Of a stretch of DNA of 64,000 nt, positions 8,576 through 49,501 are shown in pieces. The stretch comes from Bacteroidaceae bacterium (GTDB taxonomy: Bacteria > Bacteroidota > Bacteroidia > Bacteroidales > Bacteroidaceae): positions 1,369 to 65,368 of the forward strand of contig JAFYPU010000003.1 of the NCBI GenBank assembly GCA_017547385.1, given 5' to 3'. The notes beneath the pieces were generated by a model, which ran no database searches, was not told the origin of the DNA, and saw only the letters and a program-made list of their open reading frames with translations. The translations under genes were made by a program, and so were the position numbers. The first letter of the stretch is position 1. The number at the start of each line of letters is the position of its first letter.

Positions 8576-10669
8576 TTAGAGCACCACTTTCTTCACAACT
8601 ACGTCATTGCCGTTTTCAACACGCACGATGTATGCTCCCTTCGCTACGGCGATGGTGGCAGCACCGTTTACCTGAGCTTTGGCAACGAGCTTACCGTCGG
8701 TGGTGTAGACTGTGGCAGTGCCTTGAGCGGCTACCACGTTGATGGCACCTGCGGCAGCCGAAATTTCAGTAGCGAGTGTGCCGTTGGCCACTGTGTTGAG
8801 GCCGGTGGTAGCTTCGTTCAGCTTAGCCTTGGCGGCGTTCACAATTTCGCCGGAGTAGTTGTCGATGAGCAGAGCCACAACTGAGCAGTTGGCAGTCTTG
8901 CTGATGGCAGCGGGCATGGCCACTGTGATTTTGTGTGTATAAGTCTGGCCATTGGCAATGTTGTTGGGCAAGCTGCCTTCGATGCCCCAGCAGTTGTAGA
9001 TGCCGCGAGCAATGGCGTCGAAAGTTGTGCGGTAGGGTGAGCCCAAAGAGGCAAGTTCTTGCAGTTCTTTCGGCTGTCCGCTCATGTTTTGTCCGCTGTA
9101 GTAGTTCTGTTGCGCACCGCTGATGCCGTCTTCCAGAATGACGTAGGCCACGCTGTAGCTTCCGTTGTTGTCGCTCAGGCTGAAGGTGGTGTGCGAACCG
9201 AGTTCCACAGAAGCTCCATCGGCGCTCACAGTGCTGCACACACCGATTTTAGCTTCGGCGGGGATGGCGTTGATGGCCTGGACATAATTTTCAGCATCGA
9301 AGCCTTCGCCGCTCTCTCCGAAGAAGGGGTCGCCGCTGTAGAAACGGTTGAACAGTGCATAGGGAGCAGCACCAATCATGTTGTAGATGTCCGAATAGGT
9401 GTCAGTCTGGAAATTGTCTTGCCAGTGCACGGTGATTCCGATGAAGTCGTTAGGATATTTTTCCTTGAGCAATTCCATTGCTACATGGCCACGCGGACAC
9501 CATCCACACCATGTGCCGGTGATTTGTTCCATCACGGCTTTGCGGGCATAGGGAGTGTCGAGACTGATGATGAGGTTGCCTATTTTGTTATCGGCTTCCC
9601 AAGTGTCGGTGCCGGCATTCAGCGCTTTGGGAGTGATGACAATGGGATAGCGGCCGGGAGTCGCGGGAGCCACGTCCTGAACGATGAAAGAGGCGGCTTC
9701 GAGATAAGTGAGGCAGCTCTCATCGCCGTTTTCGTCCGTTACGGGGATGCTGACCTCTCTTGTTTCTCCGTTAAGCTCATATTGGAGCGTGATGTTGGAG
9801 AGGGGATACGCACCCATGTTGGTGAACTGCACGGGGAAGCTGACGCCTTCGCCGGACTTTCCGCGTGTAGGCTCGGCATAGTTCATGGCAATGTCCAATT
9901 GCTGCAAGCCGTTGTTGCCTTCGGTGTAGCATTCTATGGTAACCGCTCCGAAGTATTGGGTGAAATCCCACCAACCAGCATAATCGCTGCCTTGGGGTGC
10001 AAAGTTAACCAATACACCATAGTTGGTCATGGGGTAGGTGAAGAAGAAGTTGTTGGTGCTTGTCAACCAACTGCATTCCACTGTGTAACCTACGAAGAGG
10101 TCTTTGTCGCCGGTGATGACGTAGTCGCAGTCAACTGTGTAGTTTGCACCAACTTCGGTGCCGTCTTGCAACTTCATGTCGCTCGGAAGGTCAACATCGG
10201 CTTCGGTTTCCCAAAGACTGGTGGAGGACTCCAAGTTGTCTTTAATCCAAACCTTAACATAAACAGCTCCATCGGGCACAATCAAGCTGATTTTTTTGAT
10301 GGCGTTGCCTGCGAAGCGTGCTGTCAGGTCTTGGGAGTAGTGAGTGGCATAAGACACTTGTTCTGCTACATCATTGATTTGGTTCATGCTCAAGAACGAC
10401 ATCAAATCGTAGTAATACATTCCGTAGAACGGATTGTTCACTGTCAGCACTTTGGGATCCATTGCGTAATCATCCCATTGGCCGTTGCGAGCGGCTTTGT
10501 CGCCGGCAGAAATCTGGATGGGGCTTACTTTGGTTGCCTCAAATTGACGCACCCCTTCCACTTTGGTTTGTCTCTCAGCGTTGAAACCGCGCTGGATTTT
10601 GGCCACTTGGGCATCAACGGTGCACATCAAGCCCATGAAAGCCATGCAAAGAAGTAGAATTTTCTTCAT
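8576..10669 (-). CDS. Omp28-related outer-membrane protein with CxxC motif and T9SS C-terminal domain
   Basis: Signal peptide; RKAVMEQITGTWCGWCPRG; VAYVILEDG; C-terminus VYTTDGKLV...KGAYIVRV...KKVVL. Confidence 0.85.
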   Translation of the reverse strand: MKKILLLCMAFMGLMCTVDAQVAKIQRGFNAERQTKVEGVRQFEATKVSPIQISAGDKAARNGQWDDYAMDPKVLTVNNPFYGMYYYDLMSFLSMNQINDVAEQVSYATHYSQDLTARFAGNAIKKISLIVPDGAVYVKVWIKDNLESSTSLWETEADVDLPSDMKLQDGTEVGANYTVDCDYVITGDKDLFVGYTVECSWLTSTNNFFFTYPMTNYGVLVNFAPQGSDYAGWWDFTQYFGAVTIECYTEGNNGLQQLDIAMNYAEPTRGKSGEGVSFPVQFTNMGAYPLSNITLQYELNGETREVSIPVTDENGDESCLTYLEAASFIVQDVAPATPGRYPIVITPKALNAGTDTWEADNKIGNLIISLDTPYARKAVMEQITGTWCGWCPRGHVAMELLKEKYPNDFIGITVHWQDNFQTDTYSDIYNMIGAAPYALFNRFYSGDPFFGESGEGFDAENYVQAINAIPAEAKIGVCSTVSADGASVELGSHTTFSLSDNNGSYSVAYVILEDGISGAQQNYYSGQNMSGQPKELQELASLGSPYRTTFDAIARGIYNCWGIEGSLPNNIANGQTYTHKITVAMPAAISKTANCSVVALLIDNYSGEIVNAAKAKLNEATTGLNTVANGTLATEISAAAGAINVVAAQGTATVYTTDGKLVAKAQVNGAATIAVAKGAYIVRVENGNDVVVKKVVL

Positions 10670-10830
10670 GCTGTGTTATTGTTTAGTTAGTTAATAATGA
10701 GTTTTCGGAAATAATATCCGGCAAATGTATAGTCTTCTTGCGTAATATGCAAGCAAAATGTAGAAAATGAGACCTTGAAGATTGATGATGCAGTCTTGTT
10801 TTGCGGATTTCTGCTTATTTTTTGAGATTT

Positions 10831-10911
10831 TGTGCAAGGCTTTGTGATGAAATCTGCAAGCACTGTAGAAAAATCTGCAAGCACTGCAGATATTTCTAAA
10901 CGCTGTGTAAA
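10831..10911. repeat. Family A 21-bp-phased palindrome array, about 4 units
   Basis: TCTGCAAGCACTGTAGA at 10853 and TCTGCAAGCACTGCAGA at 10874; degenerate outer units at about 10831 and at 10895. Confidence 0.85.
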
Positions 10912-11050
10912 TTTTTGTATAGTGCAAGGTCGTTTTTGTAACAAAGTGTCAGAGGAGTCTGTACGGCCGATGTAAAAATGTAAGGGGGATATAGATTTTT
11001 TTTCGATGGGATTTCGCGCTTTCGTTCCAAAGTGGGAAACTCCTAAAAAC

Positions 11051-11114
11051 AAAAAAATTGATTGTCTCACGACAACCAATCTTCACTAACCTTAAATCTA
11101 ATACCATGAAAAAC
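11051..11114 (-). ncRNA. Candidate small RNA (~64 nt) with its own promoter and terminator
   Basis: Minus-strand TACTTTTG (-7 box, 11126-11119), then GTTTTTCATGGTATTAGATTTAAGGTTAGTGAAG, then hairpin ATTGGTTGTC-GTGA-GACAATCAAT and a T-run; no ORF inside. Confidence 0.7.
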
Positions 11115-11465
11115 GATGCAAAAGTATGGCTTTCGGGGTAATTGTGCAAGCGGTGGGAAAAGAAAAAACGAAAAAGGCGCGTTTTGGACTGTTTTTTAAC
11201 ACTTGAAATCTGAGAATGCCAAGTGGAGTTGTCAGAAGTGCTGATAAAGAATTTGATAGACGCTGCGAATTGGCGTTTTCCAATCTCACCTAAAGTATTC
11301 GTTGAAGGTGTAAAGACGGATCTGAGGGTATATATACTTATATAATTATACACGTGCGCGAGGAATGCGGCTTGGTTTTTCATATATGTGAAAATAAATC
11401 GTTATTTTTGCTTCGTAAAAGCACGCTCCCGGGGTTGTTGGTCTTTATCGCCTTGACGACGCGGG

Positions 11466-14400
11466 GTGAGGCTTTTTCATAAACCTGAAACGGACTTCGG
11501 CTTTATCAGATGTCTTAAACACATAGTGCGCGTAGTGGTGGGACTCCTCTTGGGGCTCTACCTGCTTTTGTTGTTCGGACTAAACATGCCGCCCGTGCAA
11601 CGATGGTTGGGGCGGACGGCAGCTTCGGCACTGCAGGAGCAACTGCATACTTCGGTCAATGTGGAACGGATGGAGGTGGGGCTTTTCAATCGTGTTACGC
11701 TGCGAGATGTGGAAATCGACGACCGTAGCGGAAAAGCCTTGCTTGATGCCCGTCTGCTCTCCGCCAAGATTGAAATTTTGCCGCTGCTTCATGGCGAAGT
11801 GTCGTTGCGCATGGTGTCCGTGTTGGATGGAAAGATAAATCTCTATAAAACTTCTCCGGAGGCGGCTCCCAATTTCCAATTTATCATTGATGCTTTCAAG
11901 AAAGAAGACGATGAGAAACCCTCGTCGCTCAATCTGCGCATCAATTCTGTGGTGCTGCGCCGATGTGATGTGGCCTACAACGAGCATTTTCGGCCGGCCA
12001 CTCCCGGTGCCCTCAATTTGAGTCATCTGCATGTGCAAGGGTTGGATGTTAACGTGAGTCTGAAACGGTTGACTTCTGACAGTCTCAATCTGCGTGTGCG
12101 AAGTTTCAAGATGGCGGAGCAGAGCGGTTTGGCCATCGACCGAATGGCACTGCGTTTGGCCGGTAACCGCAAGGGATTTTCGGTGAGCGGTTTCGAATTG
12201 TCGATGCCGCACGGAACTCATCTTGAGCAGGAAGCCCTGCAAGCCACATACGACATGGATGCCCCGGGCGGACTTTGGCAAACGCTGCGACTCACCGGTA
12301 GGTTGAGGCAGGCCAAAGTGGCCACCGATGATGTGGCTTTTGTTTTTCCGAAACTCCGTTCGCTCAATCGTATTGTGGAGATGGCTTCTTCTTTCTCCAT
12401 TCGGCCGCAGGACATCTCGCTGAAGGATATTCGCCTGAGCGATGCCGATAATGATTTGATGCTCTCGGGCAATGTGTTGATGCAACGTGAAGCCGGCAAA
12501 GTGGTGGCCATGAAAGCACAGGTGGGCGATTTGCATCTGGAAAACGACTTATTGCAATCTGTGGTTGGGATGTTCGCATCCCAGGTGCCGACGGTGGTGG
12601 CCAAAGTGGGCGATATAGATTTTAGCGGTGATGTTGATTATCACCAACAAGGGCAGAGCAAAGCCGAAGGCACACTCTCGATGGCTGCCGGCACACTAAA
12701 TGCACGTGTGGGCTGGAAGGGAACACAGCTGGAAGCACAAGTGAAATCAGACAGTCTCAATCCGGCGGTGTTGTTTCAAGCCAAGGGCGTTCCGCACCGA
12801 CTCTCTTTCAACGTGGAAGGCGAAGGAGATGTGTCGCAACAACATCCGCAATTGCGCTTCACCGGTCGGATCAACCAAGTGGCTTTGCCCGAATATACTT
12901 ACAAGGATGTTGACATATCGGGCAACTGGCGCAATCATCAATTTATCGCTGACGTGAAATCGGACGACCCGAATGCAAAACTCAGAACCAATGTGTCCGG
13001 ACGTTTCGATGGAAAACGTTTTTCTGCCCTTGCCTTGTCGGCAGATGTCGAAAGTTTCAACCCTCATGCGTTGGGCTTGATAAAAAAATATAGCGGTGTG
13101 CAGTTTGCTTCGCACCTCGAAGCAGAAATGGCTGACACCGACTTCGGAAATCCCAACCTCTCTTTGCGTGTTTCCGATTTTGCAATGCTTTCTCCTGAAA
13201 AGCCTTATTATCTTGATCATCTCAACTTGAATATACACCCGGTGCCTGAAGGCTCGCACTTGAGCCTGAAGAGTGATTTCGCTGTGGCCGAAGTGCGCGG
13301 TCCGTTCTCGTTGGAAAATGTCAAAGCCTGTGCCCGGGAACTTCTCTTGCAGAGTATGCCATCGTTGGCTGATATGCTAAAAGCGGGAAAACCTTCCGGC
13401 AATTTGCGCATGTCGGCCCGCATTTTCAATACCGACTTCCTGCCGGCCTTGCTCGATGTGCCACTCACATTGCATGGCACTGCAACATTGGAAGGTGCGC
13501 TCAATGCTGACAGCACGCGCTCCACACTTTCGCTGTATGCTCCCGGAATTACGTACGCAGAGAACCGAATAGACGACATTCGTTTCTACATGCGCGGCGA
13601 AGACGGAAGATTGGCCTTGTTGGCACAAGCAGAAACGCAAATCAAGGGTTCAAACATGGAGTTGGTGCTTGATGCATCGGCCACGGAGGATCAATTGTTG
13701 GCCTCGCTTGATTGGGACGACAGCGGTCTCCATCGTTATCGCGGAGCACTCAGTGCCGTTACGGAGTTTGGGGGGCAAGGTTCCGAAAAAGAAATCCGAA
13801 CCACGCTCATCCCGACCACGATTTCCATCAACGACACTGTGTGGAATGTGGCTTCGGGAAAATTTTCTTGGAACGGCAATGCCATGAGTATCGATCGCTT
13901 CAGCCTGAACCATGAAGCTTCGGCTTTAACCATAGACGGGCAGTTGGCCAAAGACACCGGCGACTCCATTATTGCAGACTTGAAGAACATTGATGTGTCA
14001 TACATCCTGAATTTGGTTAACTTCCATGCCGTGGAATTCGGTGGCCATGCCACGGGACGTGCAACGCTTTCATCTTCATTGAAAAATCCGATGGTGGATG
14101 CCCGTCTGCGAGTGCCGGATTTCCATTTCAATGGGGCATATTTGGGCGATGCCGATATACGTGGCGGATGGAACAACCGAGAAAAGCAAATCGAGTTTGA
14201 CGCAAAGATGACTGAAGAGGGAATTGGTTGGACCACCGTGAAAGGATATGTGTCTCCCCCCCGAAAATGTCTGGATTTGCGCATCGGCAGCGAGAACACC
14301 AATCTGGCTTTCTTGAACCGCTATGTGACGGGCATCTTCGGCGATTTGGAAGGTCGCGCTACAGGCTTCACTCGTCTGCATGGACCTTTCAAGGAGCTGG

Positions 14401-28364: not shown

Positions 28365-28423
28365 TCTGCAAGCACTGCAGATTTTTCTACAAGCACTGCA
28401 AAAAATTCTACAAGCACTGCAGA
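28365..28423. repeat. Family A 21-bp-phased palindrome array, 3 direct units
   Basis: TCT(G/A)CAAGCACTGCA(G/A)A at 28365, 28386 and 28407. Confidence 0.92.
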
Positions 28424-45349: not shown

Positions 45350-48300
45350 TTATTTCACCAACACTTTCTTGCCGTTGATGATGTAGAGACCCTTCTTGAG
45401 GTTCTTGACTGAGTTGCTAACGAGGCGACCCTTGATGTCGTAAACCTTAACTGAAGTGGCGTTGCCGATGATGCCGGCGATGCCTTCGGGAACAACTACG
45501 GTGAAGGTAGCGGTGAACTCGGGGTTGTAGAGTGCGCCCCAAGCGATGCCGAAGTCTTCAGCTTCAGGATCGAAGTTGGCGTTGAATACGGTTGCTTCGG
45601 GAACTACGAGTGTGTAAGTGCCCACTTCGCTGATGGCCTTGTCGAGAGTGATGACAACGTCCATGCCGTATTCTTCAGAGTTAACCTTGGCGGTACCGTT
45701 GGCCACGATGTTGCCTTCAGCGTCCTTGAGAACGATGGCCTTCTTGGTGTCAACACCGCCTACGAAGTCGTATCCACTTGTGGGGTTCTCGAAGGTGAGT
45801 GTGAATTCCTTGAGTTCGGCCACTTCGCTACCATCTTCAGGAGTGATGGCTACGCAAGAGAAGATGTCGGCGCGTACGGGTGCGGTGTATTCGAGAGAGA
45901 TGTATTCTTCTCTTTCACCGTAAGTTACGTAGTTGCCGTTAATGTCCTTCACTTGGAGCATAATCATGGCTTGTGCCTGGTACTTGATGTAGTCGGCGGG
46001 GATGTTGAGGGTGAGCACGTTTTCAGCGATGGTGTAGTCTTCTTCAGAGAAGGTGTAACCACGCATACCGGTCATGTTGGTACGGAGCACACCGAATTCG
46101 AGAGCTTCGATGTTGGCGCTGAAGGTCATGGTGATCTGAGCGGGGAGTTCGTCATAATGACCGGGAGTGGGGCTCACCTCAACGGTGGTAACCACGGGAG
46201 CGGGGTTTTCGAAGGCTTCGATAGCTGCGAGGGCTTCGGTTGCATCGAGTTCACCTGCTTCGATGAATTCCACGGTGTTGCCGGCATCGCCGAGGTCGTT
46301 CCAGAAGGTGATGAGACCACCCACGTTGGTGTAGTTGTTGGAGATACCGATGTGGTTTTCGCCGAGAGCTACAACCCAAGCGTATTGACCGCCGTTCTTG
46401 CTATTGAGGATGTTGGCCACGGTGGTGGGAGTGTCAACCAAACCTACACCTTGACCGTTCACAACGGCAAACTTCTTGGCAGCTACGCTATAGAGGTAGT
46501 AGTTGCCCTTCTTAGACTTCAAGAAAGCGAATTGCTTGTTGGCATCGGCCAAGTCGGCGGCAACACCAGCGCAAGTTGAAGATACGAGGATGTCGGTACC
46601 AATAACAGCACCTTCAACGGTGTAAGCAGGATCGTATGCCCACATACCGCGAGTGTTCTGTACGTAGTAAGCCTTGTCGTTGCTCAATTCGTCGAGTGAA
46701 GTAACACCATATACCTTATCCTTCTCAACTTCCTTGATGAGGGCGAGAGCAGCTGTTGCGTCGAAGTCAACAACGGGGAGGATGTAGTTAGAGTTACCTG
46801 CGTCGGGAGTTCCCCACCAGTCGATAGAGGTTTGCTTAGAACCACCGGCGTTGAAGTGGTTGTCGCCGTCGATGTAGAGCACGAAGGTGCTATCCTTCTC
46901 ACCGGCCTTGAAGTAGATGGGGTCAGTGGGAGTTTCGCTCAACACACCCTTCTTACCAACGAACTTGCTCTGACCTACGCTATAAAGGTAGTAAGACTTA
47001 CCGTTGTTGCTGGTGAGGATGGCGAACTGCTGGTTGGCATCAGTTGCATCGTTGGTGAGACCGAGGTCGTTGGTGGTCTTCATGTTGGTGGCATCAACGC
47101 CCCAACCGGTGCGTGCGTTGGTGAGGGTGTAAGCCTTGGCGTTGCTCAATTCAGAGAGGGCAGCGATGGGCTTAACAACTTCGGGAGCAGCAGCCTGGAG
47201 AGCTGTACCGCTGATAGCAGCATAGAATTCACCATAGTCGTAGCTCAAGCAGAGGAGGTATTCACCGGCTTCTTCTACGTCGTAAGTGAGCTCGTAGCAA
47301 ATGGGGTCGGCTTCCCAGTTAGAGTATGCGTTAGCCAATACATTTTCAGTGTCGCCGCTCTTGTAGAGGTCCATGCTGAAGTAGTTCTGAGTGGTAGAAA
47401 TACTGAATGAACCTTCGCTGAGCTGGATGCTGTACCACTTAGCATTGAGGCGGTTGCGAACTTCGGGGAAGAGGTATTCGAGGCTTTCGCCGTTGTGTTC
47501 GATGACGATGGGCTTGCTGCTGCTTTCGCCGGGGAGCAAGTCGCGAACAGAGAGCTTCACGGTCTTGCCTTCCTGAGCGCTGGCCAAGGTAACCATAACG
47601 ATTACTTCGCTGCCTTCCTTAACGGGGTAAACGCCTTCGTAAGTACCTTCGTTGTTGGTGCTAACGTTGTTGCGTGAACCGTCGATGGTAACAACAACTT
47701 GAGTGTAAGAACCGTTGAGGTATTCATTCATAGCGTCAACATTCACCTGCAACATACCTTCACGAGTAGCTACATACTTGTGGTAAGAGTTACCGGAAGC
47801 TGCGGGGATGTTGCTCACACCTGTTTCGTCAACGATGAAGGGATTGTCGGCAGATTCACCCTGCTTGTAATCTTCTTGAGAGAGTTCGAATTCTGTGTCT
47901 TCAACTACGTTGCCGAACTTGATGATGTATTCCATATCGGCTTCCACTTCCACCTTGGTGATGGTGCCGATGTGGTGAGCAGTGTAAACACCGTCCCACT
48001 GACCGGGGCCACGGGGGAAGCTAACTTCGATGGTGGGGTCGCCGGCATCGATTACCAACCAACCGTCTTGAGTGGCGGTGTAGCTGTAGTAAACTTCGTT
48101 AGTAGCCTTCAGGGTGTTAGCACCTTCCTTAGCTTCGATAGGATCGCTGTAAACCTGACCCTTCTCGATCTTAGTGATGTTAACGTTGAAGGGGATTTCG
48201 TTTACACCTTCTTGGCAATACCATTCGAGGATGTACTTGGTGTCAGCTTCAGCCACGAGGTGAATCTGAACATCTTCCTGACCACCATCCCAAACGCTCA

Positions 48301-49501
48301 TGGTTGTTTCGGGGTAGATAGCCATGTGAGTTTCATAGCTGTTGAAATCCTTGCCCGGAGTTACGTCGATGAAGTAGCTTCCTTCTTCGGCAGGAGTGGT
48401 GATGGTATAGTAGTAGTTACCATTTGACTTCGGAGTAACGTAATCGCCGTTGGTCAAAGCTTCGGCAGTTTCGATGGCATCGTAAGCCTGAAGTTCTTCC
48501 AAACTGATGGTGAATGTTTCGTCAGCATCGGTGCTGTTGGCCTTTTCGATGCAGATGTAGTAAGTACCGGCATCAGTAACTACACGGCGAGCGTGCAGAT
48601 AACCCATGGTGGTAGAGGGATAGTAGTCGCCGCATTCTTCGTAGATGCGAGTGCTACCACCGGTGAGGTCAGCTACAGAGTTAACAACGATGGCACCGGC
48701 CTTTTCAGATGTGAATTCGTACCAGTAGCGACCGGCAGCAGCGGGAAGGGTGTTTTCACCCACCTTGCCTTCGAGCGGCATAGCGCAAGAATAGCCGGCT
48801 TCGGGAACGATGAAGCGATAAGAAGCGATGAACGAAGAGTAACCCGTGGTCTTGATGATGTAAGTCTTACCGGGTTGCACAAGGGCTGAAGTGCGGTAGC
48901 TGTAATCATCCATGTCGGTGATTTCGAGCTGAACACCTTCAGTGTCATCACAGCTTTCCATCAAAGTGATGCTGTTGGGATAACCATAGAAGGTCAACTC
49001 AAGAATACCTTCCTCATCACCTTCGGGCACAGTGAACTGGCTGTAGCCGGGGAGAGCAACATACTCGTTGTAGTCGAAGGGAGAAGGAATGTAGAAAGTT
49101 CCTTCGCCTGCAACAACAGCGTCGTCGCAAGTGAGACCGCTACCGATGCTTGTGTTTTCGATAACAGCAGTCTGGAAGGTTCCTGAACCCATCCAACTGC
49201 TGGCGAAGACAATCACCGTTTCGCCCTTGCTGACGGGATAGAGCTCAGAACCCATGTACTGAGCGTAGTCAAGCATGGTGTCGTCTGAACCATCCTTGCT
49301 CACAGTTACACTGGGATTCCAGCCAGTGCAAGTAATCTGCAAGAACACATCTTGCTCTTCCGGAGCTGTGTACTTGAAGTACGTAGCTTCGGTGTCCACT
49401 GTAACTTCACCGATGGGAAGTTCCAGAGGACTTTCAAGCGTCTGGGCAAACATGCTGAAAGCAAACAATTGCATCAGACAGAAAAGTAATGATCTTTTCA
49501 T
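45350..49501 (-). CDS. Large acidic repetitive T9SS-type surface protein
   Basis: 1383 aa; signal peptide; about 6 repeats starting G-x-S-x-x-x-P; two ELSN-x-KAY...QFA-x-L...YYLYSV repeats; two Ig-like modules; C-terminus VYDIKGRLV...KGLYIINGKKVLVK. Confidence 0.85.
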   Translation of the reverse strand: MKRSLLFCLMQLFAFSMFAQTLESPLELPIGEVTVDTEATYFKYTAPEEQDVFLQITCTGWNPSVTVSKDGSDDTMLDYAQYMGSELYPVSKGETVIVFASSWMGSGTFQTAVIENTSIGSGLTCDDAVVAGEGTFYIPSPFDYNEYVALPGYSQFTVPEGDEEGILELTFYGYPNSITLMESCDDTEGVQLEITDMDDYSYRTSALVQPGKTYIIKTTGYSSFIASYRFIVPEAGYSCAMPLEGKVGENTLPAAAGRYWYEFTSEKAGAIVVNSVADLTGGSTRIYEECGDYYPSTTMGYLHARRVVTDAGTYYICIEKANSTDADETFTISLEELQAYDAIETAEALTNGDYVTPKSNGNYYYTITTPAEEGSYFIDVTPGKDFNSYETHMAIYPETTMSVWDGGQEDVQIHLVAEADTKYILEWYCQEGVNEIPFNVNITKIEKGQVYSDPIEAKEGANTLKATNEVYYSYTATQDGWLVIDAGDPTIEVSFPRGPGQWDGVYTAHHIGTITKVEVEADMEYIIKFGNVVEDTEFELSQEDYKQGESADNPFIVDETGVSNIPAASGNSYHKYVATREGMLQVNVDAMNEYLNGSYTQVVVTIDGSRNNVSTNNEGTYEGVYPVKEGSEVIVMVTLASAQEGKTVKLSVRDLLPGESSSKPIVIEHNGESLEYLFPEVRNRLNAKWYSIQLSEGSFSISTTQNYFSMDLYKSGDTENVLANAYSNWEADPICYELTYDVEEAGEYLLCLSYDYGEFYAAISGTALQAAAPEVVKPIAALSELSNAKAYTLTNARTGWGVDATNMKTTNDLGLTNDATDANQQFAILTSNNGKSYYLYSVGQSKFVGKKGVLSETPTDPIYFKAGEKDSTFVLYIDGDNHFNAGGSKQTSIDWWGTPDAGNSNYILPVVDFDATAALALIKEVEKDKVYGVTSLDELSNDKAYYVQNTRGMWAYDPAYTVEGAVIGTDILVSSTCAGVAADLADANKQFAFLKSKKGNYYLYSVAAKKFAVVNGQGVGLVDTPTTVANILNSKNGGQYAWVVALGENHIGISNNYTNVGGLITFWNDLGDAGNTVEFIEAGELDATEALAAIEAFENPAPVVTTVEVSPTPGHYDELPAQITMTFSANIEALEFGVLRTNMTGMRGYTFSEEDYTIAENVLTLNIPADYIKYQAQAMIMLQVKDINGNYVTYGEREEYISLEYTAPVRADIFSCVAITPEDGSEVAELKEFTLTFENPTSGYDFVGGVDTKKAIVLKDAEGNIVANGTAKVNSEEYGMDVVITLDKAISEVGTYTLVVPEATVFNANFDPEAEDFGIAWGALYNPEFTATFTVVVPEGIAGIIGNATSVKVYDIKGRLVSNSVKNLKKGLYIINGKKVLVK

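Follow-up and report, generated by a model that had tools for sequence, protein, structure and literature searches.

RNAs of the FopS family have been described in Bacteroides thetaiotaomicron, where about 14 paralogues (12–15) of 65–70 nt possess canonical promoters, a free 5' seed designated R1' and a terminator (Ruttiger et al., Nat Commun 2025; PMC11697453). The promoters upstream of the fopS genes are of the canonical sigma-ABfr type, and the paralogues are induced by bile salts (PMC11697453). FopS-10 binds the start regions of PUL leader genes, among them susC BT_3983, as was revealed by in-line probing, EMSA and compensatory mutations. In vitro it abolishes translation, a repression that is relieved by the RRM-1 protein RbpB (PMC11697453). 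The related RNA GibS measures ~145 nt, is transcribed from a non-canonical promoter and possesses, besides R1, a second seed termed R2 (Ryan et al., 2020, as cited in PMC11697453). The GH13 glucan-branching enzyme BT_0771 has been validated as a target of the GibS R1 seed in B. thetaiotaomicron (PMC11697453).

The window analysed here, i.e., a whole stretch of 64 kb, belongs to the genome of an uncultured member of Bacteroidaceae (2.35 Mb in 34 contigs, 86.5% complete), which was searched together with it. The locus of interest is very probably a stand-alone sRNA gene of the FopS family (RF04319), one of four paralogues, with its own promoter, an intrinsic terminator and an RNA of ~65 nt. Its minus strand matches RF04319 (BTncRNA_FopS) with 67.8 bits, the gathering score being 56, over model positions 1–71 of 71 and with E = 8.9e-08 for the whole 64-kb window (Table 1). 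A scan with all Rfam models found FopS as the sole non-tRNA family above threshold in the window, besides one tRNA, and the 2.35-Mb genome contains four FopS genes above the cut-off (67–76 bits). Features that mark membership in the family are present, namely a full-length model score, a free 5' seed followed by a single terminator and multiple paralogues, and a putative promoter of the canonical TAnnTTTG form was read from the sequence. It had been suspected from the letters alone that an sRNA already catalogued in B. thetaiotaomicron might be concerned, and the Rfam check identified that sRNA as FopS. Two other families were considered and rejected. GibS (RF04182) scored 31.4 bits at the locus and at best 38.7 bits in the genome, both at FopS copies, against a gathering score of 115, and the scan with its Rfam model found no GibS anywhere in the genome. 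BTnc231 (RF04180), for which 80.4 bits would be required, reached 29.9 bits, its model being ~154 nt long and many of its pairs broken here. Both sub-threshold matches stem from the shared 5' end.

Table 1. Positions of the sRNA gene, its parts and its neighbours in the window
Feature	Position	Strand	Basis or remark
FopS sRNA gene (Rfam-delimited)	11048–11116	-	RF04319 match; RNA ~62–67 nt depending on exact ends
Putative -7 promoter box TACTTTTG (TAnnTTTG, Bacteroides primary-sigma type)	11119–11126	-	Read directly and pattern search
Possible -33 element (TTG within CTTGC)	11147–11149	-	Suggested by the two-part Bacteroides promoter
Single-stranded 5' seed (R1/R1' equivalent), ~28 nt, U-rich	11087–11114	-	Rfam alignment and folding
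CAU in seed, complementary to AUG	11108–11106	-	Sequence
Rho-independent terminator	11045–11084	-	Terminator scan and folding; matches Rfam consensus hairpin
10-bp core stem	11080–11071 / 11066–11057	-	Terminator scan and folding
GUGA loop	11070–11067	-	Folding
U7-G-U5 tail	11057–11045	-	3' of stem
Omp28-domain gene	8576–10669	-	379 nt downstream of sRNA, same strand
TamB-like gene	from 11466	+	Other flank of gap
-7 box (TAnnTTTG) of Omp28-like gene	10729–10722	-	Pattern search
-7 box of tamB-like gene	11403–11410	+	Pattern search

The first-pass annotation had described a -7 box, an unstructured 5' part, a 10-bp stem with a GUGA loop and a U-tail, and all of these were found on the minus strand, correct to the base. 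The sRNA folds with -15.4 kcal/mol (z = -3.4), and only 1 of 200 dinucleotide shuffles folded equally well. Its first 32 nt are unpaired in both the MFE and the centroid folds and are followed by a hairpin of 10–14 bp and a U tract; the stem can be extended to 14 pairs via the first U's of the tail. The -7 pattern alone is weak evidence, since the window holds 45 matches to it while ~30 are expected. A TAnnTTTG-type box followed by a C nevertheless lies upstream of the seed in all 35 distinct copies inspected in the genus and one other family, and the box counts as evidence because its spacing to the seed is near-fixed within each subtype of these copies. As this spacing is 2 nt shorter in the subtype of the window copy than in the other subtype, the putative 5' end (G 11114) is placed with a precision of ~2 nt. 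A CTTGC-like word ~35 nt upstream of it is partly conserved in the alignment of the four paralogues. We infer that the gene is transcribed in this organism, where its own TAnnTTTG promoter would give rise to a minus-strand RNA of ~65 nt ending at the intrinsic terminator, with the first ~28 nt staying unpaired as the conserved seed.

The seed aligns with near-identity to positions 3–30 of the Rfam FopS model. On the plus strand its complement reads ...ACC-ATG-AAA-AAC, with the ATG at 11106–11108, so that the ATG-AAA-AAC reported earlier for the complement of the 5' part is indeed there. This start could also open a plus-strand frame of 11 codons (11106–11141), which might then be the functional product. 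The corresponding antisense frames at the four paralogues comprise 11, 7, 34 and 18 codons and share only MKN(D/T), the mirror image of the seed itself; moreover, conservation ends at the sRNA borders, and sORFs in fopS loci were excluded in B. thetaiotaomicron (PMC11697453). The probability of a peptide-coding role is therefore practically negligible. A minus-strand ORF of 144 aa running across the sRNA (10949–11383) was likewise judged spurious, as it belongs to no Pfam family and is unconserved outside the sRNA.

Alignment of the paralogues showed that the promoter box is common to all four and that the seed is almost identical, while the terminator stem of the window copy differs from that of the other three (GGGAUAC/GUAUCCC) at the same place. 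Two different stem sequences at one place indicate that the hairpin itself has been kept, not its sequence. Two subtypes coexist in the genus, which can be told apart by their terminator stems and by position 10 of the seed. Type A begins with GUGUUUUUCAUAG and has the GGGAUAC/GUAUCCC terminator hairpin, whereas type B, to which the window copy belongs, begins with GUUUUUCAUGG and has a AUUGGUUGUC/GACAAUCAAU hairpin resembling the Bacteroides consensus. The genome carries three copies of type A and one of type B. Across paralogues and genus the seed is nearly invariant, which upholds the conservation expected for the 5' segment.

The Rfam model detected FopS in 23 of 24 genomes of the genus, with 1–5 matches per genome; of 150 high-quality genomes sampled from the taxonomic family, 140 had matches, and these cover 26 of 27 genera. 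A 1.2-kb DNA query matched 58 of 60 genus genomes, and save for an unrelated dispersed repeat and the nearest relative these matches were confined to 11043–11133, i.e., to the promoter box and the sRNA, where the better ones are mostly 85–99% identical. The flanks of the sRNA are kept in one genus genome, that of the nearest relative; the tamB-like neighbour is found at 3 of 19 genus loci and the Omp28-like neighbour in the nearest relative alone. The sRNA is thus rarely accompanied by its present neighbours and is not tied to them. Conserved synteny of the FopS locus was accordingly rejected, both flanks being retained solely by the nearest relative. Such a multicopy unit with flanks that vary between genomes, of which one copy has been noted in a phage (PMC11697453), might be taken for the remnant of a mobile element or for a dispersed repeat, in either case lacking an RNA function of its own. 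This is extremely unlikely, considering that promoter, seed and terminator are all retained, that the seed is near-invariant while two different stems preserve the hairpin, that neither inverted ends nor a transposase context is present, and that the family is expressed and functional in B. thetaiotaomicron (PMC11697453).

Contigs from four gut or bovine metatranscriptome runs, compared with positions 9800–12300, match 11051–11114 with high contig depth, one of them being 66 nt long. Since the element is multicopy and the contigs were assembled from mixed organisms, they demonstrate neither transcription nor the strand or ends of an RNA. They diverge on both sides of this segment and thereby mark the borders of the conserved unit.

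The sRNA sits on the minus strand in an 800-nt gap between two divergent genes. Both neighbours have -7 boxes of their own, hence the sRNA is counted as an independent unit. Since the Omp28-domain gene lies on the same strand at a short distance, the RNA might alternatively be a cis-acting leader or attenuator, with read-through into this gene 379 nt downstream, and two of its Omp28-domain paralogues rank among the better predicted targets. However, a long U tract follows the hairpin, as is usual for efficient terminators, a separate TAnnTTTG box precedes the Omp28-like gene, and the same subtype adjoins unrelated DNA in most genus genomes. Pairing of the seed with the start of the adjacent gene is also poor (-10.2 kcal/mol). 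A role in cis is consequently very unlikely, and a stand-alone, trans-acting sRNA gene is preferred. The three paralogous proteins of 600–700 aa with a C-terminal Omp28 domain are encoded at 8576–10669(-) of the window and at G000:C26:138928–140811 and G000:C22:11333–13156 elsewhere in the genome; the one adjoining the sRNA is not among the better predicted targets.

The same gap also contains copies of a 17-nt palindromic unit (TCTGCAGTGCTTGCAGA-like), which occurs at 350 sites of the genome at <=2 mismatches. In the window it was located at 10853–10891 (units at 10853 and 10874), 16589, 28365–28423, 49751 and 61639. Neighbouring units are exactly 21 nt apart in 129 pairs, and 67% of the sites fall within the intergenic 12% of the genome. 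A composite element of ~100 nt around the unit (window 10838–10952) exists in many copies of ~80% identity. Contigs from RNA runs match 10853–10891 with unrelated flanks, and no Rfam match was found for the unit in the all-Rfam scan of the region. It looks like a REP-like family or a family of regulator-site repeats.

By homology with B. thetaiotaomicron, the window RNA most likely represses translation, its seed pairing with the start-codon regions of mRNAs. That it would be a stand-alone, trans-acting sRNA of ~64 nt antisense to start codons had been proposed from the sequence, and this proposal is supported by the full-length RF04319 match and by the pairing and translational repression proven for the family in B. 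thetaiotaomicron (PMC11697453). Candidate targets were sought by scoring the start region of each of 1788 crude gene calls for a duplex with the seed, and genome-wide sites by a scan seeded with 8-mer complements of the seed. Among the best 8-mer-seeded duplexes, 21–27% fall on called start codons, compared with 0–7% when six shuffled seeds were used, so the seed does appear suited to start regions. In energy, however, the duplexes of the best candidates do not surpass those formed by shuffled seeds, and individual target calls are therefore weak. According to their Pfam domains, the top start-region candidates comprise an H+-pyrophosphatase (hppA), a GH13 protein that carries CBM48 (glucan-branching type) and an NAD-epimerase. 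The candidates also include two SusD-like genes directly behind SusC genes (ranks 18 and 32 of 1788), two Omp28-domain genes, host-glycan hydrolases, GH125, GH109 and an M60-like peptidase. The hppA start region lies at C27:10101 and that of a susD-like gene at C11:47799. SusC-family genes number only three in the genome, and susC starts were rejected as targets here in silico, as they rank 490, 707 and 871 of the 1788 start regions; pairing with susC starts is a functional trait, by which the sequence family is not defined.

Targets named in the first-pass annotation fared poorly in the same scan. The start of the nagA-like gene (Amidohydro_1) ranks 292 of 1788, with -10.5 kcal/mol for the 28-nt seed, and lon, the FGE-TonB gene (1383 aa, 45350–49501) and the PstS-like gene rank 722, 847 and 1264, respectively. 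The ATGAAAAA start that had been pointed out for pstS, lon and the FGE-TonB gene is unspecific, for 65 of the 1788 crude gene calls begin in this way.

A AACCUUAAA-like sequence complementary to the FopS seed is present in the leader of the GH13 glucan-branching gene (G000:C4:133542), both in this genome and in about a third of relatives. In the orthologous leaders of 29 relatives, which have otherwise diverged, a seed-complement 8-mer occurs in 9 of 29 against a background of 2.6%, and a 7-mer in 13 of 29 against 7.3%. Because the relatives are not independent, this enrichment is regarded as a lead and not as a result. Possibly, the R1 seed has long had the leader of the glucan-branching enzyme as a common target.

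The genome was also searched with Pfam for a partner of the RbpB type, the RRM-1 proteins being the class to which RbpA, RbpB and RbpC belong. No protein with an RRM_1 domain (PF00076) was found in this 86.5% complete genome, nor was an RRM-1 protein found in two single-contig genomes of the genus that are 99% complete. Such proteins were detected in 1 of 41 genus genomes, and the control genome, that of B. thetaiotaomicron, was detected as well. Where the RRM-1 protein is missing, regulation must differ from the published circuit in this respect at least. In the taxonomic family, RRM-1 proteins occur in 38 of 150 genomes while FopS is present in 140 of the same 150; the FopS-RbpB circuit thus cannot be the general mode of control, and in the majority of these lineages FopS must function independently of RbpB. 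Apart from one clear exception, RRM-1 proteins are mostly present in those genera whose genomes contain many FopS matches.

As RbpB-type proteins are missing and the published circuit cannot operate unchanged, it is conceivable that the RNA is made and acts mainly by another route, e.g., by titrating an RNA-binding protein or by pairing inside coding regions, where several strong seed-complementary sites do fall. Against this, the seed holds the complement of AUG together with an A-run, the best sites are enriched at start codons, and pairing with start regions has been directly shown for the family (PMC11697453). There is little likelihood that such a route predominates, and repression through start-region pairing is favored. 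A more specific scheme can be put forward only tentatively and is rather doubtful: FopS of the genus would act without an RRM-1 partner, its regulon would have shifted from susC to the starts of glgB (the GH13 branching enzyme), hppA, susD-like and Omp28-like genes, and the CAUAG (GibS-like) and CAUGG subtypes would divide the roles of GibS and FopS between them.

Judging from its sequence, the host belongs to the Prevotella/Alloprevotella branch of Bacteroidaceae; it is uncultured and has a small genome. The Lon protease encoded in the window shares 94% identity with its counterpart in a MAG from roe-deer colon, labelled Bacteroidaceae, and ~70–74% with Alloprevotella, Prevotellamassilia and Prevotella entries. 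DNA runs containing the stretch are gut and bovine gut metagenomes, and the host apparently originates from the ruminant gut. In the S. copri transcriptome preprint, no prior report of such an RNA in Prevotella/Segatella was found.

As a canonical member of a family that has been published and is listed in Rfam, the gene is already known; any Rfam-based annotation pipeline would label it, and family and mechanism were published in 2025. The value of the analysis is confirmatory, in that a true start-codon-masking sRNA was recognised from sequence alone. What it adds is the distribution of FopS, far wider than that of RRM-1 proteins in the taxonomic family, the lack of an RbpB-type partner among the proteins found here, the possible conserved glgB target and the two seed subtypes. 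These leads are relevant to RNA regulation in gut and rumen Bacteroidales.

Compared with the known systems, the likeness to BTnc231 is weak and consists of a U-rich 5' end and a hairpin with a GUGA loop. GibS shares the R1 seed at its 5' end, and the type A copies of this genome have the GibS-like CAUAG version of it; in addition, a GH13 glucan-branching enzyme of the BT_0771 class is among the best targets predicted here. Nevertheless, GibS with its ~145 nt, its R2 seed and its non-canonical promoter differs from the short, single-seed RNA of the window. Closest is FopS of B. thetaiotaomicron, although 12–15 copies exist there and four here, susC starts are targeted there and are not among the predicted targets here, RbpB is the partner there while no RRM-1/RbpB gene was found here, and the present genus retains both type A and type B, with their different stems and seed position 10. 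With FopS of B. thetaiotaomicron the window RNA has in common the full-length model match, the TAnnTTTG promoter, the length, a nearly identical R1' seed, the single terminator hairpin and the presence of several paralogues.
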